Below, in pieces: positions 3,930 to 31,905 of a stretch of DNA of 32,000 nt. The position numbers were made by a program, and so were the translations under genes. The notes under the pieces are model-generated. The model searched no databases. It was not told the DNA's origin and saw nothing but the letters and a program-made list of their open reading frames with translations. Each line of letters starts with the position of its first letter. Position 1 is the first letter of the stretch. Source of the stretch: Gynuella sp. (GTDB lineage: Bacteria > Pseudomonadota > Gammaproteobacteria > Pseudomonadales > Natronospirillaceae); NCBI GenBank assembly GCA_028282465.1, contig JANQHX010000030.1:16191-48190 (forward strand), in the 5' to 3' direction.

Positions 3930-3959
3930 ATTACCCTCCAATTAACCTGATATTGGTCT

Positions 3960-4742: not shown

Positions 4743-4786
4743 TTTTTTCTCCAATAATTAACTTGTGATCAGTGGCTAATAGACCA

Positions 4787-10620: not shown

Positions 10621-10658
10621 GCAACGAAATTTTGTGTCAACCGATTGGAGCAGTATTG

Positions 10659-11057
10659 ATGGATACAGGCAGAGTCGATATTAATCATGTTCTCATGCAA
10701 ATGAGAGCCATTAAAGAGCAGATGAATACTGCGAATTCGCAAGCGGTAAACCCTAATTCCAATGTTGAACAAATTCAAAAACCGGAAAACATAGGTAACC
10801 TTGATAAAGTTTCTGCGGTTGATGAAAACGAACCACCTGGGTTTGGTGAAATGTTTAAAGCGGCAATTGATACGGTAAACGCAAACCAAAAACATGCCGG
10901 CAATTTGGCACAGCGTTATGAAACTGGCGACGCCAGTGTTGATTTACCAGAAGTTATGATTGCGTTGCAGAAATCCAGTGTTTCTTTTCAGGCCATGACT
11001 CAAGTGAGAAATAAAATGGTCGAAGCTTACAAAGAAATAATGAATATGCCGCTGTAG
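10659..11057 (+). CDS. fliE: flagellar hook-basal body protein FliE
   Basis: The C-terminus ..FGEMFKAAIDTVNANQKHAGNLAQRYETGD..VDLPEVMIALQKSSVSFQAMTQVRNKMVEAYKEIMNMPL is typical FliE. The start is set to the ATG at 10659, which follows GGAG; the tracked start at 10632 is a TTG. Confidence 0.9.
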   Translation: MDTGRVDINHVLMQMRAIKEQMNTANSQAVNPNSNVEQIQKPENIGNLDKVSAVDENEPPGFGEMFKAAIDTVNANQKHAGNLAQRYETGDASVDLPEVMIALQKSSVSFQAMTQVRNKMVEAYKEIMNMPL

Positions 11058-11068
11058 GGAATTTCTAA

Positions 11069-13895: not shown

Positions 13896-13953
13896 ACATG
13901 ATAATTCGGTTTGTATTTTAAACTTGAAAAAGCAGTCAATGGTTTAGTAATTA

Positions 13954-16747: not shown

Positions 16748-16750
16748 TCC

Positions 16751-17194
16751 ATGAAACGATCAGATCGAATGGCGCTGGTGGAAAAACTAATTGCTAGTCA
16801 AGAAGATAAAGCTGCCAGAGCCATGGGCATGGCTAAACAAAATTTATTGAATGAAGAAAAAAAACTAGCCGATTTAAAGTCCCATAAAAAAGACTACGAA
16901 GCGAATTTGCTGCGTCAGGGTCAATCAGGTATCTCAGGTCAACAATGGCAAAGTTTTCAATTTTTTATCAATCAATTAAGCCAAGTTATACAACAACAGC
17001 ATCAACAGGTAGGTGTAGCACATCACCAATTTGAAAACGTCAAGAAACAATGGCAAGCCGTTCATGCTAAGCGACAAAGTATTGGCAATTTGGTTGAAAG
17101 TGTCCGATTTCAAGAACACCTCGAACAAGAAAAGAAAGAGCAAAAAATGTTGGATGACTTAGTTCAACAGATGCAGTTGAGATCGAAATCTTAA
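16751..17194 (+). CDS. fliJ: flagellar export chaperone FliJ
   Basis: 147-aa coiled-coil, Q-rich protein immediately after fliI. Its size, position and N-terminus (..ALVEKLIASQEDKAARAMG..) fit FliJ. Confidence 0.8.
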   Translation: MKRSDRMALVEKLIASQEDKAARAMGMAKQNLLNEEKKLADLKSHKKDYEANLLRQGQSGISGQQWQSFQFFINQLSQVIQQQHQQVGVAHHQFENVKKQWQAVHAKRQSIGNLVESVRFQEHLEQEKKEQKMLDDLVQQMQLRSKS

Positions 17195-17280
17195 AGTCCT
17201 CCTTTAATTACCTATTCCTATTCTGGCAAGAGTGCCATCTCAGTCTACTATTAAAAATTATTACCATTAGGAAAGGCGTT

Positions 17281-17568
17281 ATGTCAGAGACATCTGAGAT
17301 CAGTTGTCCAAGTCTCTTCACCATTCAGAGCGTAGAAGAATTCAAAGCAGTACTGGATCCACATATAGCAGAACTAAAAGACCTAGTACTGGATGCTAGC
17401 AATGTTGAAAAGGTGGACTCCTGCGGTCTTCAGTTGCTGGTTGCTGCCAAAGATAAACTGCAACAAGGGGGGGCTTCGATGAAGATCCATTCTCCTAGCG
17501 AAGTTGTGTTGAAAATTTCAAGAATTTTAGGTCTCGAAAAAGACCTGGAAATAACTGCAAGTGCATAA
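17281..17568 (+). CDS. STAS-domain protein (anti-sigma-factor-antagonist-like), first gene of the che block
   Basis: 95 aa. '..LDASNVEKVDSCGLQLLVAA..' matches the SpoIIAA/RsbV 'D-S-x-G-L' phospho-Ser motif (Ser47 by my count). AGGAAAGG RBS. The stop is 12 nt before cheY. Confidence 0.8.
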   Translation: MSETSEISCPSLFTIQSVEEFKAVLDPHIAELKDLVLDASNVEKVDSCGLQLLVAAKDKLQQGGASMKIHSPSEVVLKISRILGLEKDLEITASA

Positions 17569-17580
17569 TCGGAGATTCAA

Positions 17581-17943
17581 ATGAGTAGAATTTTGGCAGT
17601 TGATGATTCCGCCTCCATGCGACAAATGGTCTCATTCACATTGAAAGGAGCCGGATTTGATGTCACTGAAGCAGGAGACGGGCAAGAAGCATTAGAAATA
17701 GCGAAAAACAATGTATTCGATCTGGTTTTATCTGACGTCAATATGCCGGTGATGGACGGCATTACCCTGGTGAAAAACCTGAGAGAAATGTCCGATTACA
17801 AATACATTCCCATATTAATGCTAACGACTGAGTCATCTGGTAATAAAAAAATGGAAGGTAAAACTGCCGGCGCCACTGGTTGGATTGTCAAACCTTTTAA
17901 CCCTGATCAGCTTTTAAAAACCATCAATAAAGTTATGGGTTAA
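17581..17943 (+). CDS. cheY: CheY-like single-domain response regulator
   Basis: 120 aa with the DD pair (..LAVDDS..), phospho-acceptor ..LVLSDVNMP.., ..MLTTE.. and ..IVKPF.. Confidence 0.9.
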   Translation: MSRILAVDDSASMRQMVSFTLKGAGFDVTEAGDGQEALEIAKNNVFDLVLSDVNMPVMDGITLVKNLREMSDYKYIPILMLTTESSGNKKMEGKTAGATGWIVKPFNPDQLLKTINKVMG

Positions 17944-17980
17944 AACTGTTGGAGAAGTACCACCCAAGCGAGGGCAGCCA

Positions 17981-20119
17981 ATGAGTGGAATAGATTTAAG
18001 CCAATTTCATCAAGTGTTCTTTGAAGAAAGTTTTGAAGGACTAGATGTGATGGAAAATGGCTTATTGGGTTTAGATATTGGAAATGTTGATAACGAAACC
18101 ATTAACGATATCTTTCGCGCTGCGCATTCCATAAAGGGTGGCGGAGGTACGTTCGGTTTTTCAAGTGTTTCAGATTTTACCCATGTAGTAGAAACCCTAT
18201 TGGATGAAATTCGCGCTGGGCAAAGAGCAATCACCCGCGAATACGTTGACTTGTTTTTGTCATCTGTAGACTGCCTTCGAACCATGCTGACGGAATTGCA
18301 AGATGGTCAAGAACCCGACTTAACTGGCCCCAATAAATTAAAAGAAAAATTTGAAGCCGTATTAGAAACACCTTCTCAGACATCAGTAGAACCAGACGCA
18401 GAACCAACTACTGAAGGCGGATCAGAAAAAGTCAATGATTCTAAAGGTTGGGCAATTACCTTCATACCTGGAGCTGACATCTGTCGTACTGGTAATGAGC
18501 CCTATCGAATTATAAATGAACTAGAAGGGTTAGGTGAGCTAACCACTCAGTGCCATGTGGACAGTATCCCAGATTATGATGCCATGGAGCCAGAACAGAT
18601 GTTCCTCTATTGGCACTTCAAATTAATTTCAGATTGCTCACTTGAAGATGTAAAAAGCCCATTTGATTGGGTTGAAGATGAGTCAGAGCTGACCTTCACT
18701 CCTTTATCCGAAGAGTCAGTTCAATTAGATGAACAAGAACCAACTTCAGACGCTCAGTTCGCTGCCCAGGAAATGACAACTCAAGCTCAACCAGAGCCAA
18801 TTCAAGTTCAGGCTGATGACGCGCAAACGCAAAAAGAATCATTGTCTCCTCAGGCACCCGTAGCAGCCCAAAAGAAAACAGTTAAACCAGAATCTCAAAG
18901 TATTCGAGTAGGCATCGACAAAGTTGACTCATTGATAAACATGGTTGGCGAACTGGTGATTACACAGTCCATGCTGGGCCAACTGGGCAGAGATTTTCAT
19001 ATGGATCGGCTGCACCGACTTCAGGAAGGTCTCACTCAACTGGAACATCACACGCGAGAACTTCAAGAGAGTGTAATGCGCATTCGAATGTTGCCTATCA
19101 GTTTTTCGTTCAGTCGATTTCCAAGGTTGGTGAGAGATTTATCCTCAAAACTAGGAAAGAAAGTTGACTTAGTTTTATTAGGTGAAAATACCGAGCTCGA
19201 TAAAACCGTTATGGAAAAAATTGGTGATCCCTTAGTGCATATGGTCAGAAATTCGCTGGACCATGGCTTGGAAACCCCTGAAAAAAGAAAGGCATCTGGT
19301 AAATCCGAAGTAGGCACTCTGACATTAAATGCCTATCACCATGGCGGCAACATTATTATTGAAATAATAGATGACGGCGCAGGAATAAATGAAGAAAAAA
19401 TTCTATCGAAAGCTATAGAAAATGGCTTAGTTGCACCCACTGACTCCCTAACTCCAGAGCAGGTTCAAGACCTCATTTTTCATCCAGGGTTTTCAACTGC
19501 TGATGAAATCAGTGATGTGTCTGGCCGTGGTGTTGGAATGGATGTGGTACGAAGAAACATTCAGGCCTTGAATGGTTCGGTCGAAGTTCATTCAGTACCA
19601 GGTGAGGGGTCTACTTTTAAAATTCGATTGCCGTTAACCCTTGCTATATTAGATGGGCAATTAGTTCGAGTTGGCCCTGAAACCTATATTCTGCCTCTGG
19701 TCAGTATTGTTGAGTCCATTCAAATTGATCCTACCTTGGTTAATTCCGTCGGTGGTGGTTTTGAAGTTTACCGTCTGAGAAATGAATACGTACCTATTAT
19801 TAGACTGTTTGACGTGATGAATGTGGAGCCTGATAGCCAAACCCTAAGTGACGGCCTTTTAGTAGTGGTAGAAGGTGAAAATAAAAAAGTTGGGTTTGTG
19901 ATTGATGATCTTCTTGCTCAACAACAGGTAGTGATTAAGAGCTTGGAGTCCAACTATAAAAAAGTCGAGGGCATCAGTGGTGCCACGATTTTAGGCGATG
20001 GTACGGTAGCGCTCATTTTAGATATTACTGGCTTAATTCAAGTGGCTGGCATTAAAGCTAGTACATTAAATCAATTAAAAGAATTAGAGAAGTCAGCTCA
20101 GGGCGATGAAGCCGCGTAA
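17981..20119 (+). CDS. cheA: chemotaxis histidine kinase CheA
   Basis: P1 Hpt 'AAHSIKGGGGTFG', a dimerisation region, HATPase boxes (..HMVRNSLDHG.., ..DDGAGI.., ..GRGVGMDVV..) and a C-terminal CheW-like domain. Confidence 0.95.
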   Translation: MSGIDLSQFHQVFFEESFEGLDVMENGLLGLDIGNVDNETINDIFRAAHSIKGGGGTFGFSSVSDFTHVVETLLDEIRAGQRAITREYVDLFLSSVDCLRTMLTELQDGQEPDLTGPNKLKEKFEAVLETPSQTSVEPDAEPTTEGGSEKVNDSKGWAITFIPGADICRTGNEPYRIINELEGLGELTTQCHVDSIPDYDAMEPEQMFLYWHFKLISDCSLEDVKSPFDWVEDESELTFTPLSEESVQLDEQEPTSDAQFAAQEMTTQAQPEPIQVQADDAQTQKESLSPQAPVAAQKKTVKPESQSIRVGIDKVDSLINMVGELVITQSMLGQLGRDFHMDRLHRLQEGLTQLEHHTRELQESVMRIRMLPISFSFSRFPRLVRDLSSKLGKKVDLVLLGENTELDKTVMEKIGDPLVHMVRNSLDHGLETPEKRKASGKSEVGTLTLNAYHHGGNIIIEIIDDGAGINEEKILSKAIENGLVAPTDSLTPEQVQDLIFHPGFSTADEISDVSGRGVGMDVVRRNIQALNGSVEVHSVPGEGSTFKIRLPLTLAILDGQLVRVGPETYILPLVSIVESIQIDPTLVNSVGGGFEVYRLRNEYVPIIRLFDVMNVEPDSQTLSDGLLVVVEGENKKVGFVIDDLLAQQQVVIKSLESNYKKVEGISGATILGDGTVALILDITGLIQVAGIKASTLNQLKELEKSAQGDEAA

Positions 20120-20151
20120 AAAACTAACATTACTCAGCGAGTGAGATAAAT

Positions 20152-20682
20152 ATGGAAGCTGAATTAGAAAATGCCATAGAAGAAACGGGTGAGTCAGAGC
20201 AATATCTCACCTTCATCATGGCAGACGAAGAATATGGTGTGGATATCCTTAGTGTTCAAGAAATACGAGGTTGGGAGCCCTGTACACAAATTCCCAATTC
20301 ACCTTCTTTTATGAAAGGTGTTATCAATTTACGCGGCACTATTGTTCCCATTATTGATCTTCGGGAACGCTTCGGATTAAAAACGGTTGAATACAGCCCG
20401 ACTACTGTTGTTATCGTTTTAAAGTTAGAAACCGAAAAAGGTAATAGAGTTTCTGGCATTGTGGTAGATGCGGTATCCGATGTGTATACGCTCGCAAAAA
20501 AAGATATGAAAGATGCACCTAATATCGGCGAAAAAATGAATGTGTCTTTCATAAAAGGATTAATTAACGTTAATGACAAGATGGTGATACTGCTTGAGTT
20601 AGAAACTTTAGTGGGCACGGATGAGATTGAAAATTTTGCAGAAATAGCTTCTATGGTTTCTAAAAACTCGGTTGCGGAGTAA
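20152..20682 (+). CDS. cheW: coupling protein CheW
   Basis: 176 aa with the typical ..QYLTFIMADEEYGVDILSVQEIRGW..VINLRGTIVPIIDLRERFG.. Confidence 0.92.
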   Translation: MEAELENAIEETGESEQYLTFIMADEEYGVDILSVQEIRGWEPCTQIPNSPSFMKGVINLRGTIVPIIDLRERFGLKTVEYSPTTVVIVLKLETEKGNRVSGIVVDAVSDVYTLAKKDMKDAPNIGEKMNVSFIKGLINVNDKMVILLELETLVGTDEIENFAEIASMVSKNSVAE

Positions 20683-20688
20683 AAGAAT

Positions 20689-23600
20689 ATGAATAGATTA
20701 AGTGATACCGAAGGTTGGCTGGAACGGGTTAATTTTTTAAGATCGTTAAGAGTGTCAGCAAAACTCACCCTAGCTGCCGCAGTAACTTTTATATTAATTG
20801 GTTACTTAGCCTATTCATTAAACGCTAACATAAACTCTCAAATTGAATTTAATGCCAAAGAATCGCTGGGTACCAATTACTTAATGCCAGCATACGATTT
20901 AATTAAATTTATGCAGGTGCATAGAGGTACTACTAACGCCTATTTAAACGGCAATGAAGCCGCTAAGGATAGGGCTCTGGGAGCAAGGTCAAATTTAGAT
21001 AAAGCATTTAATTCCGCGATACAGGCTTTGCAAGCATCAGGTGATCCCTTAAATATTCAGGGTGATATTGAATCACTTTCAGACTATTGGAACGAATTAA
21101 AGAACCGCGCATTTGAGGGCCCAGCTCCGGAAGTATTTGTAGACCATTCAGACATGATTAGCAACACTCAAAACGTCATTGTCAAAGTGGCGGACTCTTC
21201 TAACCTAACCTTAGACCCTGAGCTTGATACCTTTTATTTAATGGAGATAGTGAGTTTTAGACTTCACGCGCTGACTGAATACATGGGGCAGTTACGTGGC
21301 GCGGGTTCTGGCATGATCGCCTCAGGAAATTATTCGAAAGATCGGTTAATCGGGTTTGCTAAATTAGAGGGTAAGGTAGACATAGATGGACTAGAGAATT
21401 CCTTGAATTCCGCTTATGCCGATAACCCCGAGTTAAAAAATATCCTAGGTAACGAATCTCGACAAGTTGTAGAAAAATCACGAACATTTTTCAATCAAGT
21501 GGGTTATCTGGTTCAAAATGAAAATTCAAACATTTCCAGTTCAGAGTATTTTGATTTAGGAACCAGTGCAATTAACTCAATTTATGACTTCGCTGACTCG
21601 GTTAATCAAGAGCTTAAAAGGCTGATTGATATTCGCGTGTCAGACATGAAGACTGAACGCAATAATTTGCTAGCAAAGACTATCTTAGGCGTTGCACTGT
21701 CTCTAGTTTTTATTGTTTTATCCATCAGTGGGGTCGTTTCTCCGGTTAAGCGCACGCAATCATTACTTCAAGCCATTGGCGATGGCAAACTCGACAATAA
21801 GATCCTAATTAATAGTAAGGACGAACTCGGAGAAATGCTGAAAACCTTAGAGTCAATGCAAAAGCAAATGAAAGACTCTATTGAAGAACAGCGACGTATT
21901 TCAGACGAAGCCTTGAGGGTGAAAAGTGCACTGGATGTTTGCGATACTTCAGTCATGATGGCCGATAAAAACCTCAATATCATTTATATGAACAAATCAG
22001 TTCAAGATATGATGATAGAGGTGGAAGAAGATTTGGTTAAGGACTTGCCAAACTTCAATGCACGTAAGTTGATGGGGGCGAACATCGACCAGTTTCATAA
22101 AAAACCCCAGCATCAACGAGAACTTCTAAAAACACTCAATAAAGCTCATCAAGCTCGAATTAAAATTTCAGACTTAACATTTAAGCTAATAGCGACACCT
22201 ATTTTTAACGTAAATAATGAACGTATTGGAACCGTGATCGAGTGGCAAAACATCACAGCTGAGCTCGCTGCTGAAATGGAACAAAGGATGATTGCAGATG
22301 CCAATGCCCGAGTGAAGCAAGCATTGGATTGGGTAACCACTAACGCCATGGTAGCCGATTCTGATTTCAATATTGTGTATACCAATAAATCATTGCAAAA
22401 CATGATGAAGGAAGCAGAACATGATTTAAAAACAGCATTACCGAACTTTGATGCCGATAATCTTGTGGGTAAAAATATTGATGTATTCCATAAAAATCCA
22501 TCACATCAGAGAAACCTCTTGTCGAGCTTAACTGGTACTCATAAAACACAAATTGAAGTAGGTGGCAGAGTTTTCTCTCTCATCGCCAATCCAGTCGTAA
22601 ATGATGACGGAGCGAAAATTGGTGCAGTCGTTGAGTGGAACGACAGAACCAAGGAAGTATCTATAGAACAAGAAATAGATAACCTAGTTGATACCGCTGC
22701 GAGAGGTGACTTAACCGTTCGTGTTAGTGAAGAAGGTAAGTCTGGTTTCTACATGAACTTGGCGCAAGGTCTGAATCGTTTAATAGCTATTTCTGATGGT
22801 GTGGTTAATGACACGGCAAGAGTGCTGGACGGAATGGCTCATGGTGATCTGACTGAGACCATTGAAAAAGACTACGAAGGTTCGTTTGGAAAGCTAAAAC
22901 GAGATGCCAACGCAACGGTTGAAAAGTTAACGGAAATTATTTCCCAAATTAGAGAGTCAGCGAATACCGTAACAACAGGTGCCAGTGAAATTGCTCAGGG
23001 TAATGCTGATTTAAGTCAGCGAACGGAAGAGCAGGCTTCGTCACTTGAAGAAACGGCTTCTTCAATGGAAGAAATGACCAGTGCAGTACGACAAAGTGCA
23101 GAAAATGCCAGTCGAGCCAATAGCCTAGCCGCCGAAGCAAAAGACAAAGCGCAAACCGGTGGTGAAGTGGTGGATCGAGCAGTGAAAGCCATGGAAGAAA
23201 TTAATTCAGCCAGTAAGAAGATATCCGACATCATTGGTGTCATTGATGAAATTGCATTTCAAACCAATCTACTGGCTCTGAACGCGGCGGTTGAAGCGGC
23301 ACGAGCCGGTGAACAAGGTCGAGGTTTTGCTGTGGTAGCCGGTGAAGTGAGAAGTTTGGCTCAACGATCTGCAGGTGCAGCAAAAGAAATTAAAGACCTT
23401 ATTCGCGACAGTGTTGAAAAGGTGGATGCCGGTACTCAGCTGGTGAATGAATCTGGCCAAACCCTTTCAGACATTGTGACATCGGTGGAAAAAGTTTCGG
23501 GTATGGTGAGCGATATTTCTAACGCTTCTCAAGAACAAACCAGTGGCATAGAGCAGGTTAATAAAGCCGTTTCTCAAATGGATGAAATGACTCAACAGAA

Positions 23601-23850
23601 TGCCGCTCTCGTTGAACAAGCCTCAGCAGCTGGTGAAGCCATGGCGGATCAAGCCAGAAGCATGATGAAGCTTATGCAGTTTTTCACCACAGATGCTCAC
23701 CAAGTCGCCACGGCTGCTGTTTCAGAATCCGGTGCGCATAAAACCCCAAAGACTACCTCGGCAGAACCTGATCACAATGTGATTAAGTCGCCGGTAATGG
23801 GCAATGCCCAACAAGTATCAGACCCCGAAGATGAGTGGGAAGAGTTTTAA
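20689..23850 (+). CDS. methyl-accepting chemotaxis protein: TM1, ~280-aa NIT-like periplasmic domain, TM2, HAMP, two Aer2-like PAS domains, di-HAMP, MA domain, C-terminal EWEEF
   Basis: 1053 aa. Hydrophobic segments lie at aa ~24-44 and ~326-350. The PAS motifs 'FHKKPQHQR' and 'FHKNPSHQR' are each followed by a Trp 49 residues later. The hairpin tip is ..[38 protein letters not shown]... GGAG RBS. Confidence 0.93.
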
Positions 23851-23863
23851 GGAGCAGTAAAAT

Positions 23864-26647
23864 ATGGCTGATCAGCCGAGTAGAAAACCAAGGAGGCTTT
23901 CACTTAAGTCAATTCAGATAAAGCTATTTGCATTCCTGGCGTTAGTTGGGGTTAGTGTGGCCATACAGTCGCTTATGCAAATTAGCTCTGCTAATAAGTC
24001 AGTTGATCAAATTCACTATCTAAATGATATCGAAATCAAGCGGGTTAATTATTCGCAGGATTTAAAGTTTTACATCACGCAAGTTCAGCAATGGTTAACT
24101 GATATCAGCGCAACTCGAGGTCTGGATGGACTAGACAGTGGTTTTGATAAGGCTGCGGAATACCGATTAAAGTTCTTTGATCTTCTACAAGAGCTCAAAG
24201 CACTCGACACGGCAAATATCGATTTATTCGAGGATATCAATAATAAATTTCAAATTTACTATGATACTGGCGTCACAATGGCTCAAGGCTATGTAACTCG
24301 CGGGCCTGTACAAGGAAATATACTAAAAAGGGAATTTAATGATGAAGCCCGAGAGATTAATACTCTGCTTGATGGGTACGTGAAAGATACTCAACAGGAA
24401 ATGAACGATCTGGTAGCCCTCCAGCTTGCAGAGTTGAATCGTAATAAAATCACCACTGAAGCATTTGCTGGTTGGTATGGCGTGCTCTCTGTCGTAATGA
24501 TTTTTGGATTGGTTTACTGGATAAGAAGACCTTTTCAAAACTTTCATGAAAAGCTGACTAATTTACTGAAATTTCAGGAAGAGCAAAGTAATTATCGGAT
24601 AGACATAAGTGATATAGATACCGACGAAGATACTGAGATAGGTCGGTTCGGAAATGTACTGTCAGCCATTATTGTGAATCAAGAAAAAACACGTTTAATC
24701 ATGGAAGAAAACTCTGTTCGTCAGACTCAAATAGAAAAGGCATTAGACGTTTGTGATACCTGCGTCATGATGGCAGACAACGACCTAACTATTCGATACA
24801 TGAACCATTCCGTTCAAGAGATGATGCAAGAAGTTGAGCCAAAGCTGAAAGAGTCTCTACCAAACTTTAATGCCTCCACCTTACTGGGTTCTAACGTAGA
24901 CCAATTTCATGTTAAGCCGCAACATCAGAGGACGATACTTAAGGAGTTGACTCAGCCTTATCAGGCAAGAATTAAAGTTTCAGGCCTTTCATTCAACTTG
25001 ATTGCTACACCCATATTTAGTGATTCCAATGAAAGGCTTGGAACTGTCATTGAGTGGAAAAATATTACTCAGGAATTAGCTGACCAAGAAAAGAGTAAAA
25101 AAATTGCTGATGCCAACTCCAGAGTCAAACAGGCATTGGATAACGTCAATACCAATGCAATGGTTGCAGATTCCGATTTTAATATTGTGTATATGAACGA
25201 GTCGGTTCAGAACATGATGCTTGCGGCGGAAGCTGATTTGAAAAAACAGCTTCCAAACTTTGACGCTAAGAATTTGTTAGGTCAAAACATAGATATATTT
25301 CATAAGAATCCAGCGCACCAACGAAATCTTTTGAGTCATCTAAATGATACCTTTCGAACTCAGATCCAGGTGGGTGGCAGAACTTTTGGATTAATCGCAA
25401 ACCCAGTCTTTAACGAAGCAAAAGAAAAAATTGGCGCGGTAGTGGAGTGGGAAGACCGCACCATTGAGGTGGCGGTAGAGCATGAAATTGATCATCTGGT
25501 TGATAATGCTCTAAAAGGCAATTTGGCTGTTCGTATTGGTGAAGAGGGCAAAGAAGGTTTTTATAAAACCCTGGCTCAGGGGCTAAATAAATTGGTGGGT
25601 ATTGCTGATGATGTCGTCAATGATACCGCTGAAGTGTTGGATGCAATGGCCCATGGTGATCTTACCAAGACAATAGACAAAGAATATCAAGGGGCTTTTG
25701 GGAAACTCAAACAAGATGCTAACGCAACAGTAGAAAAACTCACAGAAATTATTTCTCAAATTCGTGAGTCAGCAGATACTGTGACGACAGGTGCAAGTGA
25801 AATTGCCCAGGGTAATGCAGACTTAAGTCAGCGTACAGAATCACAAGCCTCTTCACTTCAAGAAACCGCTTCTTCAATGGAGCAAATGACCAGCGCAGTA
25901 AAACAGAGTGCAGAAAATGCCAGTCAAGCGAATACTCTCGCAGCGGAAGCTAAAGATAAAGCACAATCTGGCGGGCAAGTGGTTGATCGCGCAGTCAAAG
26001 CCATGGAGGAGATAAATTCCTCCAGTAATAAAATATCCGACATCATTGGTGTTATTGATGAAATAGCATTTCAAACCAATCTTCTTGCCTTAAATGCAGC
26101 GGTGGAAGCCGCTCGTGCAGGTGAGCAAGGTCGTGGCTTTGCAGTGGTTGCAGGTGAAGTCCGTAGTCTAGCTCAGAGGTCAGCTGGCGCGGCGAAAGAG
26201 ATTAAAGATCTCATTAGAGACAGTGTCGAAAAAGTGGATTCTGGTACTCAATTAGTTAATGAATCTGGAGAAACACTTGCTGCCATCGTGTCATCTGTCG
26301 AAAAAGTGTCGAGCATGGTGAATGACATTGCTTCAACTGCCCATGAGCAAACCAATGGTATCGACCAAGTGAATATAGCCGTGTCGCAAATGGATGAGAT
26401 GACCCAACAGAATGCCGCGCTTGTAGAAGAAGCATCGGCTGCGGGTGAGGCGATGGCTGATCAAGCTCGCAATATGATGAAGCTAATGGAATTTTTCTCT
26501 ATTGGCCAAGACTCAGCTATCAGTCATGCGGCGGCGACTCAATCAGTTACTTCTAAATCAAGTATGACGCATCATGTTACGAACTCCCCAGCGGGTGGAC
26601 TATCGCCGACAGTATCTGATGTTGATGACGAGTGGGCTGAGTTTTAA
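23864..26647 (+). CDS. methyl-accepting chemotaxis protein, paralog: TM1, ~155-aa helical periplasmic domain, TM2, linker, two Aer2-like PAS domains, di-HAMP, MA domain, C-terminal EWAEF
   Basis: 927 aa. From PAS1 onward it is collinear with, and highly similar to, the upstream MCP, while the N-terminal sensor is unrelated. AGGAG RBS. Confidence 0.93.
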   Translation: MADQPSRKPRRLSLKSIQIKLFAFLALVGVSVAIQSLMQISSANKSVDQIHYLNDIEIKRVNYSQDLKFYITQVQQWLTDISATRGLDGLDSGFDKAAEYRLKFFDLLQELKALDTANIDLFEDINNKFQIYYDTGVTMAQGYVTRGPVQGNILKREFNDEAREINTLLDGYVKDTQQEMNDLVALQLAELNRNKITTEAFAGWYGVLSVVMIFGLVYWIRRPFQNFHEKLTNLLKFQEEQSNYRIDISDIDTDEDTEIGRFGNVLSAIIVNQEKTRLIMEENSVRQTQIEKALDVCDTCVMMADNDLTIRYMNHSVQEMMQEVEPKLKESLPNFNASTLLGSNVDQFHVKPQHQRTILKELTQPYQARIKVSGLSFNLIATPIFSDSNERLGTVIEWKNITQELADQEKSKKIADANSRVKQALDNVNTNAMVADSDFNIVYMNESVQNMMLAAEADLKKQLPNFDAKNLLGQNIDIFHKNPAHQRNLLSHLNDTFRTQIQVGGRTFGLIANPVFNEAKEKIGAVVEWEDRTIEVAVEHEIDHLVDNALKGNLAVRIGEEGKEGFYKTLAQGLNKLVGIADDVVNDTAEVLDAMAHGDLTKTIDKEYQGAFGKLKQDANATVEKLTEIISQIRESADTVTTGASEIAQGNADLSQRTESQASSLQETASSMEQMTSAVKQSAENASQANTLAAEAKDKAQSGGQVVDRAVKAMEEINSSSNKISDIIGVIDEIAFQTNLLALNAAVEAARAGEQGRGFAVVAGEVRSLAQRSAGAAKEIKDLIRDSVEKVDSGTQLVNESGETLAAIVSSVEKVSSMVNDIASTAHEQTNGIDQVNIAVSQMDEMTQQNAALVEEASAAGEAMADQARNMMKLMEFFSIGQDSAISHAAATQSVTSKSSMTHHVTNSPAGGLSPTVSDVDDEWAEF

Positions 26648-26697
26648 TTAACTCAGTTCTAAACCAGTAAATTTGCCTAAAGGTCGTACTTCAATCA

Positions 26698-27543
26698 ATG
26701 GCGTTATCTGAAGCAACTAACGAATTTCAACAGCGTGAATTTCCTATGACAGATTCTGATTTCAAGACTCTGTCAAGCATTGCTTATAATGCCACTGGCA
26801 TCGTTCTGGGAGATCACAAACGAAATCTTGTTTATAGCCGGTTAGCTAGACGAATCAGAAGTTTAAGCCTAAATAGCTTTAAAACTTATTGTGATGTTCT
26901 AGAAGGTGGTAATGAAGAAGAGTTGGATAATTTTGTTAATGCCATTACTACAAATCTGACTTCGTTTTTCAGAGAAAGTCATCACTTTGATTTTTTAGAA
27001 GAACTTCTGGAAAGAAAGCGAAAGGAAGGCAAGAGAAGTATCAGAATTTGGTCGGCGGGTTGTTCTACAGGTGAAGAGCCTTATTCAATCGCAATCACCA
27101 TTAGAAAAGTATTTGGTGATTCCCACGGATACGACGTGAAATTATTAGCAACTGATTTGGATTCTAATGTGTTGAATCATGGCCGGGAAGGAATATATGA
27201 CTATTCTAGAGTAGAGGCCTTAGATAAAAGAATTATCTCAACAAACTTCTCTAAAAATGTTGGCGGTTCCCAAGTAAAAGTAAAGCCTGAAATACGAAAG
27301 TACATACAATTCAATCGCCTAAATCTTTTATCTAGTTGGCCCATGACCAAAAAGTTTGATGTCATCTTCTGTCGTAATGTGGTGATTTATTTTAATAAAG
27401 AAACTCAGAAAGTTTTGTTTGATCGTTACGCACAGCAGTTAAATGAAGATGGCTATTTGATTATTGGGCATTCAGAAAATTTACATGGTGTGACTACGCG
27501 TTTTAAGTCATTAGGTCGCACCATTTATAAAAGGGTCAAGTAG
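26698..27543 (+). CDS. cheR: chemotaxis protein methyltransferase CheR
   Basis: ..GIVLGDHKRNLVYSRLARRIR.., ..FFRESHHFDFL.. and the SAM-binding ..IRIWSAGCSTGEEPYSIAI... The start could instead be the second Met, at aa 17. Confidence 0.92.
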   Translation: MALSEATNEFQQREFPMTDSDFKTLSSIAYNATGIVLGDHKRNLVYSRLARRIRSLSLNSFKTYCDVLEGGNEEELDNFVNAITTNLTSFFRESHHFDFLEELLERKRKEGKRSIRIWSAGCSTGEEPYSIAITIRKVFGDSHGYDVKLLATDLDSNVLNHGREGIYDYSRVEALDKRIISTNFSKNVGGSQVKVKPEIRKYIQFNRLNLLSSWPMTKKFDVIFCRNVVIYFNKETQKVLFDRYAQQLNEDGYLIIGHSENLHGVTTRFKSLGRTIYKRVK

Positions 27544-27548
27544 CTATT

Positions 27549-28190
27549 GTGAAACCAGTGACTCCACAGCAACCACAGCCAGATCCTTTTCGCGGTTTCG
27601 AACATATTAATAGGTTCTGGGACAAAGGTTTTAGTCAGTGGTCGGCCAAAATTTTACCTGGAGAGTTTTATGTGTCTCCGGGCGGGGAAGTTATCTCTAC
27701 TGTGTTAGGTTCCTGCATCTCTGTCTGTATTAAAGACAAACAGACAGGCGTTGGTGGTATGAATCATTTTATGTTGCCCTCTCAAGAAGAACACTCGTCT
27801 GTAGACTGGGGTTCAAATTCGTCGGCGGCCAGATACGGTAACTGGGCGATGGAATACCTAATTAACGAAATCATGAAAAACGGTGGACTAAAAAGAAATT
27901 TTGAAGTGAAGGTGTTCGGCGGCGGTCAAATTTTGGCGAACATGACAGACATTGGTCAGCGCAATATTTTATTTGCTCTAGATTTTTTAAGGCGTGAAGG
28001 ATTAAACCCAGATGCATGTGATGTTGGTGATGTTTATCCACGAAAAGTTTACTTCAATGTTGATACCGGAAAGGTGAGGGTTCGAAAGCTATCTGCCATG
28101 AAGAATCAGACTATTGTGCGTCGTGAGAAAGCTTATATGGATAGCATAGAAGAACATAAAGATGATGTGGATATTGAACTGTTTGATTGA
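27549..28190 (+). CDS. cheD: chemoreceptor glutamine deamidase CheD
   Basis: 213 aa with a GTG start. It has the CheD catalytic-type motifs ..TVLGSCISVCI.. and ..GGMNHFMLP.. Confidence 0.88.
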   Translation: MKPVTPQQPQPDPFRGFEHINRFWDKGFSQWSAKILPGEFYVSPGGEVISTVLGSCISVCIKDKQTGVGGMNHFMLPSQEEHSSVDWGSNSSAARYGNWAMEYLINEIMKNGGLKRNFEVKVFGGGQILANMTDIGQRNILFALDFLRREGLNPDACDVGDVYPRKVYFNVDTGKVRVRKLSAMKNQTIVRREKAYMDSIEEHKDDVDIELFD

Positions 28191-28199
28191 GGATAAAGA

Positions 28200-29255
28200 A
28201 TGGCGATTAAAGTACTGATCATCGATGATTCAGCAGTCATTCGTCAGGTGTTGCAACAAATTCTCGGTTCCGACTCCAGAATTGAAGTGGTAGGCACCGC
28301 AGCAGATCCGATCATTGCAAGGGAAAAAATTAAGCAATTGAAACCGGATGTGCTAACCCTTGACATAGAAATGCCAAAGATGGATGGCATAACCTTTTTA
28401 AAAAATTTAATGCGTTTACATCCCTTGCCCGTCATCATGATTTCAACCTTAACCCAAAAGGGCGCGGGCGTTACTTTAGATGCATTAGCCATAGGTGCAG
28501 TAGATTTTGTTGCTAAGCCACAGATGAGTGCGGCACAGAAACTCATTGACGATTATGCAGAAGATATTATTGAAAAGGTAATTACGGCGGCAAGTTCAAA
28601 TGTGAAAGCATTTGACCCGGAAGAGTTTACCTCTCATCAAAAACTAGAACCTATTAAGCAACCAACAAACAGTAAGCCGTTAACCTATCCTGTCATAGCC
28701 ATTGGTGCATCCACTGGTGGTACAGAAGCAATTAAAGATGTGCTTGCCAGATTACCAACATCATTTCCTCCAATTATCATAACTCAACATATTCCCGTTG
28801 AATTTAGTGAATCTTATGCTCAAAGATTAAACAAAAATTGCGAGTTAACTGTGCATCATGTGACCAGCCCAATGCCGTTGAGCCCAGGTAATGCCTATTT
28901 AGCACCGGGTGACAAACATTTATTAGTGACCAAAGAGCGGGGGCAGTATTATTGCCAATTATCAGATGGCCCAAAAGTAAATCGACACAAACCCTCTGTT
29001 GAGGTTATGTTTGATTCAGCACTGAATCTATTTGGGGAGAAGTTGGTAGGATTAATGCTGACTGGAATGGGGGCAGACGGTGCGGAATCCATGTTGAGGA
29101 TGCACGAAAAAGGCTGCCATACTATTGCACAAAGTGAAAAAACTTCAGTCGTTTGGGGTATGCCTGGTGCGGCCGTCGCGCTCAATGCTGTTGATAAGGT
29201 ATTGGATTTAAATGAAATTGCCCTGTACTTAGGAAATTACATTAAAAAATTCTAG
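28200..29255 (+). CDS. cheB: chemotaxis methylesterase/deamidase CheB (REC + CheB_methylest)
   Basis: REC domain (..VLIIDDSAVIRQ..LTLDIEMPKMDG..) and esterase domain (..IGASTGGTEA..GMGADG..). GAGGA RBS. Confidence 0.93.
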   Translation: MAIKVLIIDDSAVIRQVLQQILGSDSRIEVVGTAADPIIAREKIKQLKPDVLTLDIEMPKMDGITFLKNLMRLHPLPVIMISTLTQKGAGVTLDALAIGAVDFVAKPQMSAAQKLIDDYAEDIIEKVITAASSNVKAFDPEEFTSHQKLEPIKQPTNSKPLTYPVIAIGASTGGTEAIKDVLARLPTSFPPIIITQHIPVEFSESYAQRLNKNCELTVHHVTSPMPLSPGNAYLAPGDKHLLVTKERGQYYCQLSDGPKVNRHKPSVEVMFDSALNLFGEKLVGLMLTGMGADGAESMLRMHEKGCHTIAQSEKTSVVWGMPGAAVALNAVDKVLDLNEIALYLGNYIKKF

Positions 29256-29344
29256 CTATCGGAAAACACTATTGCACTAACCACACATAGGTCTAAACTG
29301 AAAATGAAACTTGGCCCAAAATGTTAAAAAAGGGGTAGATATAT

Positions 29345-29650
29345 ATGACTATTTCCGCTATTGGTAGTGGTGATGGAAAAGAGTTAACCATTAAAGTTTC
29401 GGGGCGTTTTGATTTCAGCGCGCACCAGGAATTTAGGCAGGTTTATGAAGGTGCATCACCTGATATTGAAAGCTATGTTGTTGATATGGCAGAAGCTACC
29501 TATTTAGACAGTTCGGCGTTGGGTATGCTGTTATTGTTGAGAGACCATGCGGGTGGTGATTCAGCAAACATTAAAATCAGTAACTGCAACAGCGATGTGA
29601 AAAAGATTTTGACCATTTCAAATTTCGGACAGTTGTTCGCAATTGATTAA
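29345..29650 (+). CDS. STAS-domain anti-sigma-factor antagonist (HsbA-like)
   Basis: 101 aa. '..EATYLDSSALGMLLLL..' carries the conserved Ser (Ser56 by my count). It lies directly upstream of the REC-PP2C-kinase gene, as hsbA/hsbR do in P. aeruginosa. Confidence 0.82.
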   Translation: MTISAIGSGDGKELTIKVSGRFDFSAHQEFRQVYEGASPDIESYVVDMAEATYLDSSALGMLLLLRDHAGGDSANIKISNCNSDVKKILTISNFGQLFAID

Positions 29651-29666
29651 CCGTCACCTAAAGACT

Positions 29667-29702
29667 GCAAGCTAGATACTGTTTTACTAGCTTGCCGTTT
29701 TA
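29667..29702 (+). terminator. strong hairpin with a U-rich tail between the STAS gene and the hsbR-like gene (terminator or attenuator)
   Basis: GCAAGCTAG (29667-29675) pairs with CTAGCTTGC (29687-29695): a perfect 9-bp stem with an 11-nt loop, followed by CGTTTTATC. Confidence 0.6.
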
Positions 29703-29726
29703 TCTCCCTTCGGTTTGAGAGTATTT

Positions 29727-31418
29727 ATGTCTAAAAGCCTTAAAATTCTTATCGCCGATGACAATGACTCCGATCGCTTAATTCTTACCGCTATTGTCAA
29801 AAAAGAAGGGCATGAATCGGTAACTGCTGCTAACGGTCAAGAAGCCGTTGATATGTATAAAGAGCATAAGCCTGATATTGTACTGCTGGATGCCCTCATG
29901 CCAGTGATGGATGGTTTTAATGCCGCCAGATTGATCAAAGAAGCCTCGGGTGAAGACCTTGTTCCCATTATTTTTCTAACCAGCTTGCAAGACGCAGCCT
30001 CGCTAGCGAAATGTTTGGACTCTGGTGGAGATGATTTTCTTTCTAAGCCTTACAACCGAATTATTCTAAAAGCAAAAATAAATGCTTTTAGTCGCATGAG
30101 AACCATGCATTCTGCAATTCAGGAGCACAACAAACAATTGCTCTTGGAACAACAAGTTGCCAAAACGATTTTTGATAACGTCGCTCATTTAGGCTGCTTA
30201 GATGCAGGAAACCTAAAATACTCTTTATCGCCACTAGCCGTATTTAATGGCGACACGGTTTTAGCAGAACGAAAACCTGATGGCGGTATGTATGTTTTTT
30301 TGGGTGACTTTACCGGGCATGGATTACCTGCAGCCGTAGGGTCATTACCTCTTGCCGAAATTTTTTATGGTATGACAGGTAAAGGTTTTAACATCGAAGA
30401 AATTCTTCGAGAGATAAACCAGAAACTCAGAAAAATATTACCAACGGGCGTATTTTGTTGTGGCTCCATGATAGACATGGACTTCTATGAAAAGTCTGCC
30501 AAGGTTTGGGTGGGAGGCTTACCAAACTGTTTTCTTTACCATTCTGGTAATAAAGAAATTACAGAATTAATTTCTAAAAATCTTCCGCTTGGGGTTTTAG
30601 ACTCCAAAAGTTTTAAGCCAGTATTTGAAGAATACTCATTGGATATTGGTGACAGATTCTTTCTATGGTCTGATGGTATTATCGAATCCCGGAATGTCGA
30701 AGGCGAAATGTTTGGAGAAGATCGCTTAAGAGACGTTTTCTATAAATGCCAAGAGCCTGAAGAACTGTTCCAGCAAACTCTGTCAGCCGTTGATGAATTT
30801 ATTGGTGTCGAAGGTGTCAGAGACGACGATATTACCGTGCTGGAAGCCAAGATGGTTGAGCATGCGGAATTGGGTGAAAGCAATCTCCAAAACATGAAGG
30901 GCACATCGGTAGGCCCTATGGATTGGGAGCTTGAGTTTGTATTAAAGGCGGCGACCCTAAAACTCTACAACCCATTGCCATTGGTGCTTCACATAGTTAC
31001 TGAAGTGGAAGGGTTGCGCTCTGTGAGCGGCCAGCTTTATACCCTATTGGCTGAATTGTTTTCCAATGCACTGGAACACGGTGTATTAAATCTTAGCTCA
31101 GAGCTCAAAAAATCGACTGCGGGTTTTGCAGAATATTATCAGGCAAGAACCAAAGCGCTTGAACAGCTTTCTGAGGGTGAGGTAAAAGTCACCTTAAGGC
31201 ACAAACCATTAAACCTGGGAGGTTTGTTAACCATTCGGATGGAAGACACTGGAAATGGCTTTGATCATGAATCAATTATCAATAGAAGTCGAACCAATAA
31301 AGAATATAGTGGTAGGGGCTTGCCTTTGATTTCCAAAATCTGCGATAGTTTCGCCTATAAAGGTAAAGGCAACATTGTGGAAGCTACCATTCAATGGCCT
31401 GTAGTTAAAAAGATATAG
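29727..31418 (+). CDS. HsbR-like response regulator: REC, PP2C/SpoIIE Ser phosphatase, and HATPase-type anti-sigma Ser kinase
   Basis: REC domain (..ILIADDNDSD..IVLLDALMPVMDG..), SpoIIE-type domain (..GGMYVFLGDFTGHGLPAAV..RDDDITVLE..), and C-terminal N/G boxes (..ELFSNALEHG..EDTGNGFD..GRGLPL..). The start is set to the ATG at 29727; the tracked start at 29715 is a TTG. Confidence 0.85.
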   Translation: MSKSLKILIADDNDSDRLILTAIVKKEGHESVTAANGQEAVDMYKEHKPDIVLLDALMPVMDGFNAARLIKEASGEDLVPIIFLTSLQDAASLAKCLDSGGDDFLSKPYNRIILKAKINAFSRMRTMHSAIQEHNKQLLLEQQVAKTIFDNVAHLGCLDAGNLKYSLSPLAVFNGDTVLAERKPDGGMYVFLGDFTGHGLPAAVGSLPLAEIFYGMTGKGFNIEEILREINQKLRKILPTGVFCCGSMIDMDFYEKSAKVWVGGLPNCFLYHSGNKEITELISKNLPLGVLDSKSFKPVFEEYSLDIGDRFFLWSDGIIESRNVEGEMFGEDRLRDVFYKCQEPEELFQQTLSAVDEFIGVEGVRDDDITVLEAKMVEHAELGESNLQNMKGTSVGPMDWELEFVLKAATLKLYNPLPLVLHIVTEVEGLRSVSGQLYTLLAELFSNALEHGVLNLSSELKKSTAGFAEYYQARTKALEQLSEGEVKVTLRHKPLNLGGLLTIRMEDTGNGFDHESIINRSRTNKEYSGRGLPLISKICDSFAYKGKGNIVEATIQWPVVKKI

Positions 31419-31442
31419 AACTGAAACAGTCGGAGAAATCTC

Positions 31443-31790
31443 TTGGTTGATGTTAATGACCATTTAAACACCGAAGCATTAGATGAATTGAAAGAAGTAA
31501 TGGAAGACGACTTTAGTTTATTGATAGATACCTTTGTAACCGATAGCGAAACCAGGCTACAAACTTTGTCAGACTTAGTGATGGGAACGGATGCCGATGC
31601 AATTAGACGGGAAGCGCACAGTCTAAAAGGCAGCAGTAGTAATATTGGAGCCACTAAGATGACAGACCTTTGCAAGAGCCTTGAAGATCAGGGCAAAGAT
31701 GGGGTTCTGGACGGCGTACAGGGCTTAAAAGATGCTATCGCACAGGAATACCAATTGGTCAAAGGCCTTCTTGAGCAGCACTATAGTTAG
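31443..31790 (+). CDS. single-domain histidine phosphotransfer (Hpt) protein, HptB-like
   Basis: ..IRREAHSLKGSSSNIGA.. is the canonical Hpt phospho-His motif. The TTG start follows GGAG with a 7-nt spacer. The alternative ATG at 31500 would truncate the first helix. Confidence 0.82.
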   Translation: MVDVNDHLNTEALDELKEVMEDDFSLLIDTFVTDSETRLQTLSDLVMGTDADAIRREAHSLKGSSSNIGATKMTDLCKSLEDQGKDGVLDGVQGLKDAIAQEYQLVKGLLEQHYS

Positions 31791-31809
31791 TGCTGCTTTT
31801 TCGTTTTTT
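31774..31809 (+). terminator. rho-independent terminator closing the che / partner-switch block
   Basis: AGCAGCAC (31774-31781) pairs with GTGCTGCT (31790-31797): an 8-bp stem with an 8-nt loop that contains the Hpt stop codon, followed by TTTTCGTTTTTT. Confidence 0.85.
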
Positions 31810-31889: not shown

Positions 31890-31905
31890 TGGCCTTTGCT
31901 TTGCT
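31890..31905 (+). promoter_or_regulatory. second sigma54 (-24/-12) promoter
   Basis: TGGCCTTTGCTTTGCT has the same TGGCCTT...TTTGCT frame as the fliE promoter, with GG and GC at the consensus spacing. It lies 38 nt upstream of an ATG. Confidence 0.6.

Follow-up and report, generated by a model that had tools for sequence, protein, structure and literature searches.

A stage-1-like F7 chemosensory cluster at the fliJ-hsbA junction, next to HsbA-HsbR-HptB orthologues, in one clade of Oceanospirillales

Introduction

Stage-1 chemosensory clusters of the F7 class combine a 5' STAS gene, a core running from cheY to cheB, a gene for an mcpA-like methyl-accepting chemotaxis protein (MCP), a second STAS gene and a serine phosphatase gene, and the function of stage-1 and stage-2 F7 systems has been stated to be unknown (Ortega et al. 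2020, PMC7184735). For Shewanella, a path from Che1 through CrsR/CrsA to RpoS has been proposed (PMC9855816). Reported targets of the HsbA/HsbR partner switch are FlgM/FliA and RpoS in Pseudomonas aeruginosa (Leal-Morales et al.), and CfcR/CfcA, not FliA, in the case of P. putida HsbA (bioRxiv 2024.11.25.625174). Here we describe a 14.5-kb unit in a 32-kb stretch of Gynuella sp. DNA (contig JANQHX010000030.1, positions 16,191 to 48,190; hereafter, the window). The unit sits between fliJ and fliK, and consists of a stage-1-like F7 (Aer2-type) cluster at the fliJ-hsbA junction, directly 5' of orthologues of HsbA, HsbR and HptB. The locus thus puts an F7 (Aer2) system and the HptB-HsbR-HsbA switch side by side.

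The chemosensory part most resembles V. cholerae cluster III and V. vulnificus che2 (PMC7184735, PMC10107281). These stage-1 F7 clusters share with the window a 5' STAS gene, cheY, cheA, cheW, an Aer2-like 36H heme-PAS receptor, cheR, cheD and cheB, as well as a 3' STAS gene with a response-regulator serine phosphatase and the absence of cheZ, and the che proteins of two Vibrio F7 loci are 44-49% identical to those of the window. In contrast to the Vibrio clusters, which have two cheW genes and an mcpA-like receptor gene after cheB, the window has a single cheW, no such receptor gene, and two Aer2-like receptors in tandem, both with periplasmic domains. Its 3' pair is of the HsbA/HsbR type, with only 31-35% identity to that of Vibrio; an Hpt gene comes next, and the whole unit lies between two flagellar genes.

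The switch part has orthologues in the same hsbA-hsbR-hptB order in P. aeruginosa (PA3345-PA3347) and P. putida (PP_4362-PP_4364), with HsbA Ser56, a three-domain HsbR and the Hpt histidine shared with the window, and in P. putida and most pseudomonads these genes also lie between fliJ and fliK. Compared to Pseudomonas, the window adds a complete F7 cluster with an extra STAS gene in front, separating fliJ from hsbA. A strong terminator parts hptB from fliK in the window, whereas transcription runs on into fliK in P. putida.

Three further systems share parts of this arrangement. Che1 of Shewanella oneidensis, a stage-2 F7 system, likewise shows genetic linkage to a STAS gene and a gene for a REC-PP2C-kinase regulator (CrsA/CrsR), but its switch genes and mcpA lie 5' of cheY, it has no 5' STAS gene, Hpt gene or flagellar context, and CrsR is only ~25% identical to HsbR. 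Che2 of P. aeruginosa (PA0173-PA0180) has the cheY-cheA-cheW-aer2-cheR-cheD-cheB core of the window but differs in its soluble PaAer2 and the lack of a 5' STAS gene. The Bacillus RsbV-RsbW-RsbU and SpoIIAA-SpoIIAB-SpoIIE switches share with the window a STAS serine after a conserved aspartate, a GHKL serine kinase/anti-sigma factor and a PP2C phosphatase; in the window, however, kinase and phosphatase are fused to a receiver, with His-Asp phosphorelay input, and a single enzyme is matched by two STAS proteins.

An initial annotation of the window had put forward a partner switch as a candidate answer to what F7 systems do. Because the bracketing of F7 clusters by such genes (PMC7184735) and the Shewanella hypothesis of a partner-switch output (PMC9855816) have already been published, that central idea is not new, and the locus is not a new class of system. 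We found no description in the literature consulted of HsbA/HsbR/HptB in place of the 3' F7 module, an arrangement that published context surveys of CrsR homologues may draw. Nor did we find a description there of an F7 locus that is enclosed by fliJ and fliK, that has only one cheW and no mcpA, that encodes a duplicated Aer2 receptor in which both copies carry periplasmic domains, or that has a conserved promoter element 5' of the first STAS gene (STAS1). The Ortega dataset includes F7 proteins of Thalassolituus oleivorans (PMC7184735), but Hpt and fliJ are named neither in the article nor in its 31 supplementary files.

HsbA, HsbR and HptB orthologues follow the che genes

Genes in the window were called from a map of open reading frames (ORFs) and Pfam scans. 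Twelve genes from STAS1 to Hpt lie on the + strand with intergenic gaps of 5-89 nucleotides (nt), and the gene list, strand and coordinates of the initial annotation were reproduced for all twelve, each with strong Pfam support (Table 1). The second STAS protein, HsbA, carries Ser56 in the motif LDSSALG, and this is the residue phosphorylated in P. aeruginosa HsbA (bioRxiv 2024.11.25.625174). It is 80% identical to the product of the Reinekea marina gene directly after fliJ and 56-69% identical to Pseudomonas HsbA, compared to 34-35% for the F7-linked STAS proteins of Vibrio. HsbR is 44-48% identical to Pseudomonas HsbR and 31-33% identical to the F7-linked phosphatase of Vibrio, and several of its close homologues bear the Joint Genome Institute (JGI) name 'HptB-dependent secretion and biofilm response regulator'. 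HptB, with His59 in HSLKG, is 40-45% identical to Hpt proteins encoded at the same position in Pseudomonas and others (40-44% for Pseudomonas HptB), and a single-domain Hpt gene directly follows hsbR in more than 20 loci.

All three domains of HsbR retain their characteristic residues. Across an alignment of 23 sequences, D55, T85 and K107 of the REC domain are invariant, as are D194, G197-H198-G199 and D316-G317 of the PP2C domain (the DxTGHG and DG motifs) and N447, G509, G511 and G529-R530-G531 of the GHKL kinase (the N-box and G-boxes). A neighbour-joining tree of HsbA plus HsbR with 100 bootstrap replicates split the HsbR type from the CrsR type of Vibrio, locus L024 and Cycloclasticus in 98/100 replicates. 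Judged by identity, Ser56 and the tree, the 3' module is a true orthologue of Pseudomonas HsbA/HsbR/HptB, a likeness already noted in the initial annotation, and is distinct from the RsbV/RsbU (CrsA/CrsR)-type pair that accompanies F7 clusters in Vibrio. The 3' STAS and serine-phosphatase response regulator of stage-1 clusters are thus present in architecture, but they belong to the HsbA/HsbR lineage. No equivalog-level NCBIfam name was returned for STAS1, HsbA, HsbR or Hpt.

Chemosensory proteins and heme-PAS receptors

The stage-1 core order, cheY-cheA through cheR-cheD-cheB (Ortega et al. 2020), is present in the window, with STAS1 directly ahead of cheY and its stop codon 12 nt before it. 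CheY retains its acidic pocket, with D8/D9, D52 and K104, and is 77% identical to the Gynuella and Oceanobacter proteins and 64% identical to Vibrio F7 CheY. The CheA P1 domain has His49 within AAHSIKGG; CheA identity is 58-62% within the clade and 45-49% to Vibrio F7 CheA. Outside the clade, the closest relatives of the che proteins are, in this comparison by sequence identity, Vibrio stage-1 proteins at 44-49%. CheA is also 58% identical to that of the Thalassolituus lineage, and T. oleivorans proteins are labelled F7 in the supplementary trees of Ortega et al.

In agreement with stage 1, neither the ORF map nor Pfam revealed a cheZ gene in the block. Other stage-1 traits are missing. The block has one cheW ORF and no second, in place of the pair of cheW-like genes that is typical of stage 1 and present in Vibrio loci L021 and L022. 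An mcpA-like receptor gene 3' of cheB is absent in the window, where hsbA comes 89 nt after cheB; in L021 (Vibrio) and L024, this position is occupied by an MCP gene (408 or 417 amino acids).

Both receptors are Aer2-like, so this stage-1 trait (a 36H, PAS-heme, poly-HAMP receptor in the cluster) is present in two copies. Receptor 1 (MCP1) is composed of a transmembrane (TM) segment, a periplasmic domain of ~280 amino acids, a second TM segment, HAMP, PAS, heme-PAS and HAMP_2 domains, and the signalling domain. Its hydrophobic segments cover residues 19-46 and 325-355, and it contains the FHKNP and WxDRT motifs also seen in receptor 2. Its best NCBIfam match is Vibrio Aer2, under the cut-off; this Aer2 equivalog scored 660 bits where 1200 are required. 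Receptor 2 (MCP2) also has two TM segments, around a periplasmic domain of ~155 amino acids, and the periplasmic domains of both receptors are without a Pfam match. The second PAS domain of receptor 2 matches the PAS and di-HAMP structures of P. aeruginosa Aer2 (3vol, E 8e-68; 4hi4, E 7e-41) and keeps the equivalents of the heme ligand His234 and the oxygen-stabilizing Trp283 of PaAer2. The signalling domain aligns nearly without gaps to the 36H receptor Tsr of Escherichia coli (307 versus 306 residues). The two receptors are 63% identical over their cytoplasmic parts and are therefore tandem duplicates. Together, the heme-PAS receptors, cheD and the stage-1 gene order support the F7/Aer2-type assignment of the initial annotation.

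STAS1 has Ser47 at the canonical phosphosite. Its orthologues are short and fast-evolving, with only 26-36% identity, and a homologue search with the single STAS1 sequence returned the query alone. The family was recovered by searching with an alignment of three orthologues from related loci, and a member adjoins cheY in L005, L006, L090, L091 and L092. Across the aligned family, D46 does not vary and is followed by threonine or serine at position 47. The AlphaFold2 model of STAS1 (pLDDT 84) places the start of helix 2 at residue 47, and its best match in the PDB is RsbV in the RsbV/RsbW complex (TM-score 0.80). The model thus points to an RsbV-like fold in which the phosphosite is retained. 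The only SpoIIAB-type kinase gene near STAS1 is hsbR.

The layout is conserved, and the che block is the variable part

Contigs were scanned with a profile of the HsbR alignment; among the 80 loci listed, ~20 held full-length relatives and the rest were unrelated receiver domains. The closest HsbR-like proteins (55-67% identity) belonged to Reinekea, Gynuella, Saccharospirillum and related Oceanospirillales. Neighbourhoods were then rebuilt from called genes and tblastn maps. The layout of the window was found in at least seven further lineages (L002, L086, L088, L005, L006, L090 and L092), and is conserved as a whole in at least eight lineages, window included, of one clade of marine Oceanospirillales. 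It is complete from fliJ and STAS1 to hsbR in Gynuella sunshinyii (CP007142), Oceanobacter sp. NORP38, Thalassolituus sp. LLYu03 (CP191496) and an abundant TARA Oceanospirillaceae metagenome-assembled genome, and its 3' part is seen in Marinicellulosiphila megalodicopiae (L088; AP023087) and the metagenome contigs L002 and L086. A fliJ gene also precedes STAS1 or hsbA in related loci, and a Flg_hook (fliK) gene comes after hpt in every one of them.

Loci without the che block are common. The order fliJ-hsbA-hsbR-hptB-fliK was seen in ten species of Pseudomonas or Ectopseudomonas, as the initial annotation had stated for some pseudomonads, and also in two Reinekea, in Saccharospirillum and in Pokkaliibacter, and the P. 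putida operon hsbAR-hptB-fliK…flhB (Leal-Morales et al.) matches this che-less layout. In Marinimicrobium and Halioxenophilus, hsbA-hsbR-hpt lies 3' of fliI, with no fliJ match there by tblastn. The Vibrio, L024 and L091 loci have their own mcpA-like receptor and/or STAS-phosphatase module and lack Hpt; in the Cycloclasticus symbiont (L091), a STAS-phosphatase-MCP set is divergent from STAS1-cheY…. The adjacencies that the initial annotation had marked for a survey, STAS-cheY and cheB-STAS-REC/PP2C/kinase-Hpt, are kept within the clade; Vibrio-type F7 loci are without Hpt. The F7 block of the clade lacks a 3' STAS-phosphatase pair of its own, whereas every other stage-1 or stage-2 cluster examined has one adjacent. 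Because hsbAR is present in every locus with the che block (che+) and is retained in loci without it (che-), the dependency runs in one direction.

The HsbA-HsbR tree united all che+ loci with Reinekea and Saccharospirillum in 96/100 bootstrap replicates, placed a che+ metagenome locus as sister to che- Reinekea in 99/100, and recovered the che+ loci as an exclusive group in 0/100. Downstream genes common to L086, L087 and L004 independently tie L086 to Reinekea. Among che+ taxa, the cheR-cheD-cheB tree is congruent with the hsbA-hsbR tree. Identity of the switch proteins does not fall in step with that of the che proteins: at 50-52% che identity, hsbAR identity is 56% in Oceanobacter and 38% in L024, and Vibrio loci have 44-45% che and 33% hsbAR identity. 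The L091 phosphatase is 35% identical to HsbR of the window.

Since che-less relatives are common, the block from STAS1 to cheB behaves as an inserted, deletable piece, as the initial annotation had supposed. These comparisons suggest that it was probably acquired once, at the fliJ-hsbA junction in the clade ancestor, and lost at least two times. On the simplest reading, the acquired block was a stage-1-like F7 cluster without its own mcpA-STAS-phosphatase tail, inherited vertically thereafter with hsbAR-hptB. We hold this account of the anatomy and evolution of the locus with high confidence. The che+ and che- members of the Reinekea lineage offer natural presence/absence comparisons, and some bearers of the layout are named species whose genomes have been sequenced (Gynuella sunshinyii, Thalassolituus and Marinicellulosiphila).

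Several relatives had additional features near these genes. In Vibrio aestuarianus (L021, 11895-13580), a gene for FapA (flagellar assembly protein A) lies directly after the F7-linked REC-PP2C-kinase gene, so that the stage-1 F7 neighbourhood of this species also touches a flagellar-assembly factor. The Cycloclasticus symbiont locus (L091, 2798-20264) is an F7 variant in which cheA seems to be split, cheW is followed by a gene for a ParA-like ATPase, and the receptor combines globin and PAS domains; its divergent set encodes STAS, REC-PP2C-kinase, MCP and REC-REC-GGDEF proteins. In M. megalodicopiae (L088), the genes after fliK (14080-16521) are an IS1595-family transposase gene and others unrelated to the cluster, so that fliL-fliR and flhB do not adjoin it in this genome.

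Promoter-like elements and terminators

A sigmaS-type extended -10 pattern of the TCTAnnCTTA class, GTCTANNMTWA, was drawn up after viewing the sequences. Over both strands of the window (64 kb) it has a single match, at 17243-17253, compared to 0.74 expected. L005, L006, L090 and L092 contain exactly one match each, and in these loci and the window the match lies 30-41 nt 5' of STAS1; the background across 2.9 Mb of other loci is 0.0065 per kb. Its positional constancy across spacers that are otherwise unalignable is far beyond chance. We consider the element a probable, sigmaS-like promoter of the che block, which suggests that the block does not simply depend on read-through from fliJ. The gene order after fliJ given by the initial annotation stands. 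Dependence on RpoS has been reported for V. cholerae cluster III and for P. putida PhsbA (bioRxiv 2024.11.25.625174), and by analogy a sigmaS-like element fits both.

The spacer between cheB and hsbA is 89 nt in the window, 84-298 nt in che+ loci and ~62 nt in Oceanobacter; in Vibrio, an mcpA-like gene comes in between, and only 11 nt separate it from the STAS gene. A one-mismatch copy of the -10 element, GTCTAAACTGA, lies ~55 nt 5' of hsbA in the window and overlaps a weak sigma28-like TAAA-N16-GCCCAAAA. The strict form was found 5' of hsbA in only 2/25 loci, and the sigmaS-like -10 was dropped as a conserved hsbA promoter. Sigma54 promoters 5' of STAS1 and hsbA were also rejected, because the candidates TGGCAAGAGTGCC and GGAAAACACTATTGC have the wrong GG-GC spacing. 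In the window, no convincing sigma28 promoter was found 5' of STAS1 or hsbA, and a sigma70 scan gave 14 matches compared to 33.7 in shuffled sequence, none of them in the relevant spacers.

Terminator-like sites on the + strand inside the block numbered 13, compared to 13.2 expected by chance, and none was convincing, in line with the initial annotation, which had placed the first terminator at 29667. The hairpin there is real but moderate (9-bp stem, 11-nt loop and T-run; -18.8 kcal/mol, z = -2.5). It lies in the hsbA-hsbR spacer, which at 76 nt is unusually long, the gap being far shorter in most relatives and 12-33 nt in several of them, and may be an attenuator, a partial terminator or a repeat element. 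The strong terminator after Hpt (11-bp stem, -17.7 kcal/mol, z = -5.9) was confirmed, with 0/200 shuffles folding as well, and so was the sigma54-type promoter motif beyond it, TGGCCTTTGCTTTGCT, which has the canonical GG-N10-GC spacing.

A possible output of the F7 array through the Hsb switch

Our overall reading is that an F7 cluster settled at the fliJ-hsbA junction and would feed the Hsb switch, to which we assign a probability of roughly 0.5. In the proposed mechanism, the block would be transcribed from its own, probably RpoS-type, promoter, and the two membrane-anchored heme-PAS receptors would sense oxygen or related gases, along with periplasmic cues, to set CheA activity. Phosphorylated CheA would pass phosphate to CheY and CheB and, directly or via phosphate exchange through CheY/HptB, could bias phosphorylation of the HsbR receiver. 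HsbR would thereby switch between kinase and phosphatase activity toward HsbA Ser56, and possibly STAS1 Ser47, and the partners sequestered by HsbA/HsbR (RpoS, FlgM/sigma28 or a diguanylate cyclase) would change. Genes for these partners are absent from the window. The F7 array would then be an accessory input to a switch that can work without it, with HsbA/HsbR standing in for the dedicated 3' partner switch of other stage-1/2 F7 clusters. The functional coupling itself, judged from gene content and sequence, is a tentative proposal that we put somewhat short of an even chance. A more specific version, in which an oxygen-sensing F7 array has been rewired onto HsbR-HsbA-HptB and HsbR acts on both HsbA and STAS1, forming a branched switch from oxygen or redox state to RpoS, sigma28 or cyclic di-GMP in the flagellar programme, is possible but doubtful. 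If true, this would supply ancestral F7 systems with an output and the Hsb pathway with a physiological input. The flagellar output through FlgM favoured in the initial annotation is disputed, as P. putida HsbA, encoded at the same fliJ/fliK position, was without effect on FliA activity (bioRxiv 2024.11.25.625174).

Coupling is favoured because F7 clusters adjoin REC-PP2C-kinase/STAS modules of two distinct lineages, because the F7 block of the clade lacks exactly the module that HsbAR could replace, because no che+ locus is without hsbAR while the reverse is common, and because STAS1 keeps its phosphosite with the sole nearby SpoIIAB-type kinase domain being that of HsbR. In this locus F7 is tied, independently and for a second time, to a REC-PP2C-kinase/STAS switch, one of a different paralogous lineage from that of Vibrio and Shewanella, which strengthens the guilt-by-association case for a partner switch as an F7 output. 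Several observations weigh on the other side and would suit an F7 block that is cargo in a permissive site, with the Hsb switch driven by hybrid histidine kinases through HptB and the F7 output lying elsewhere, through CheY. The hsbA-fliJ junction is a preferred insertion point in Pseudomonas flagellar clusters (Leal-Morales et al.), and the che block has been lost repeatedly while hsbAR-hptB stays intact and unchanged in che- relatives. No residues were found that are common to che+ HsbA, HsbR and Hpt but absent in che- relatives, so nothing in these proteins points to their having adapted to a new partner. STAS1 has a promoter-like element of its own, and the long cheB-hsbA spacers suggest that hsbA keeps its own promoter as well. 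A V. vulnificus two-hybrid assay detected no interaction between CheA2 and the response-regulator phosphatase RsbU, with the data not shown there (PMC10107281), and che+ genomes could hold a CrsR-type module elsewhere. However, F7 clusters beside STAS and REC-PP2C-kinase genes of two lineages (CrsR/RsbU and HsbR) are hard to ascribe to chance insertion, the block has lost precisely the 3' module that HsbAR could replace, and the adjacency is kept in at least eight lineages with divergence down to ~50% protein identity. We consider an unlinked cargo block somewhat unlikely.

The position between fliJ and fliK, and receptors that both have two TM segments and periplasmic domains, would also suit a true motility (aerotaxis) pathway with F7 CheY acting on the flagellar motor, as Ortega et al. 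tie a periplasmic sensor to motor-controlling F7 systems (PMC7184735). We regard this as very unlikely: the block is without cheZ, the receptors keep the PAS-heme/poly-HAMP core of Aer2, the promoter element resembles the sigmaS type rather than flagellar sigma54 or sigma28 promoters, and CheY is close to its Vibrio F7 counterpart, Aer2 systems reportedly being without direct control of flagellar motility (PMC10107281). Another account holds that nothing was inserted and that the 14.5-kb unit is an ancestral F7 cluster. In that case HsbA/HsbR would be direct orthologues, evolving fast, of the 3' pair of stage-1 clusters, and the loci of Pseudomonas and Reinekea would be remnants left by che loss or relocation. 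The domain architecture is indeed identical, and the HsbR tree forms a graded series with Vibrio at one end, the HsbR clade at the other and L024 and L091 in between. P. aeruginosa Che2 is not known to have an adjacent partner switch, which would also suit this account. In that species, HsbAR lies apart from Che2, beside cheR-like genes (Leal-Morales et al.). Against it, hsbAR identity is sharply bimodal (56% versus 33-38%), Hpt goes with the HsbR type only, and the mcpA-like gene goes with the CrsR/RsbU-type module and is absent after cheB in HsbR-type loci. The outgroups Pseudomonas, Marinimicrobium, Pokkaliibacter and Halioxenophilus also all lack che genes at the site, and an ancestral unit is improbable.

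Other features of the window

Table 1. Features of the fliJ-fliK interval, in window coordinates
Feature	Position	Strand	Evidence and remarks
fliJ	16751..17194	+	Left boundary, last gene of the fliE-J block; Pfam FliJ, E 2.7e-25
sigmaS-type -10-like element GTCTACTATTA	17243..17253	+	38 nt 5' of the STAS1 ATG
STAS1	17281..17568	+	Pfam STAS_2/STAS, E 2e-12; RsbV/SpoIIAA-like anti-sigma-factor antagonist
cheY (F7 type)	17581..17943	+	Pfam Response_reg, E 8.5e-29
cheA	17981..20119	+	Pfam Hpt, H-kinase_dim, HATPase_c, CheW; P1, P3, P4, P5 domains
cheW	20152..20682	+	Pfam CheW, E 7e-37
MCP1, Aer2-like receptor 1	20689..23850	+	Pfam HAMP, PAS, HAMP_2, MCPsignal
MCP2, Aer2-like receptor 2	23864..26647	+	Pfam HAMP, PAS, HAMP_2, MCPsignal
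cheR	26698..27543	+	Pfam CheR_N, CheR
cheD	27549..28190	+	Pfam CheD; NCBIfam CheD equivalog, 234 bits (cut-off 223)
cheB	28200..29255	+	Pfam Response_reg, CheB_methylest
hsbA orthologue (STAS2)	29345..29650	+	Pfam STAS
Hairpin and T-run between hsbA and hsbR	29661..29701	+	RNA fold
hsbR orthologue, REC-SpoIIE(PP2C)-HATPase_c_2	29727..31418	+	Pfam
hptB orthologue, single-domain Hpt	31443..31790	+	Pfam Hpt, E 7e-17; TTG start, GGAGA ribosome-binding site
Intrinsic terminator of the hsbA-hsbR-hptB unit	31773..31798	+	Fold statistics
sigma54-type promoter TGGCCTTTGCTTTGCT	31890..31905	+	For the next gene, presumed fliK, ATG at 31943

Upstream of STAS1, the fliE-fliJ genes span 10632-17194. A sigma54-type motif, TGGCCTTCAATTTGCT, lies at 10556-10571, ~100 nt 5' of fliE, for which the ATG at 10660 is a more probable start codon than the TTG at 10632. 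In L004, L087, L089, L090 and L092, fleQ, fleS and fleR lie directly 5' of fliE; they are absent there in the window, where their place is taken by a 466-amino-acid ORF (6418-7818) with only a weak match to an insertion sequence (IS)-type zinc finger. This ORF is followed by a 145-amino-acid ORF with no matches (8023-8460), two tandem bacterioferritin genes (8839-9312 and 9323-9790) and a small Bfd-like ORF (~10107-10305), and GC content falls to 0.335 at 8-9 kb of the window.

The left end of the window (94-6031) holds a nucleoside-catabolism and uptake set, with a cytidine deaminase fragment on the + strand and genes for purine nucleoside phosphorylase, phosphopentomutase, thymidine phosphorylase, DeoC aldolase and a NupC-type transporter on the - strand. 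Within the flagellar genes, FliH (in 13954-16747) is long at 406 amino acids, with a weak Yae1_N-like repeat match. The listed fliI ORF, from 15131, overlaps fliH by 44 nt, and the true fliI start is therefore probably further downstream.

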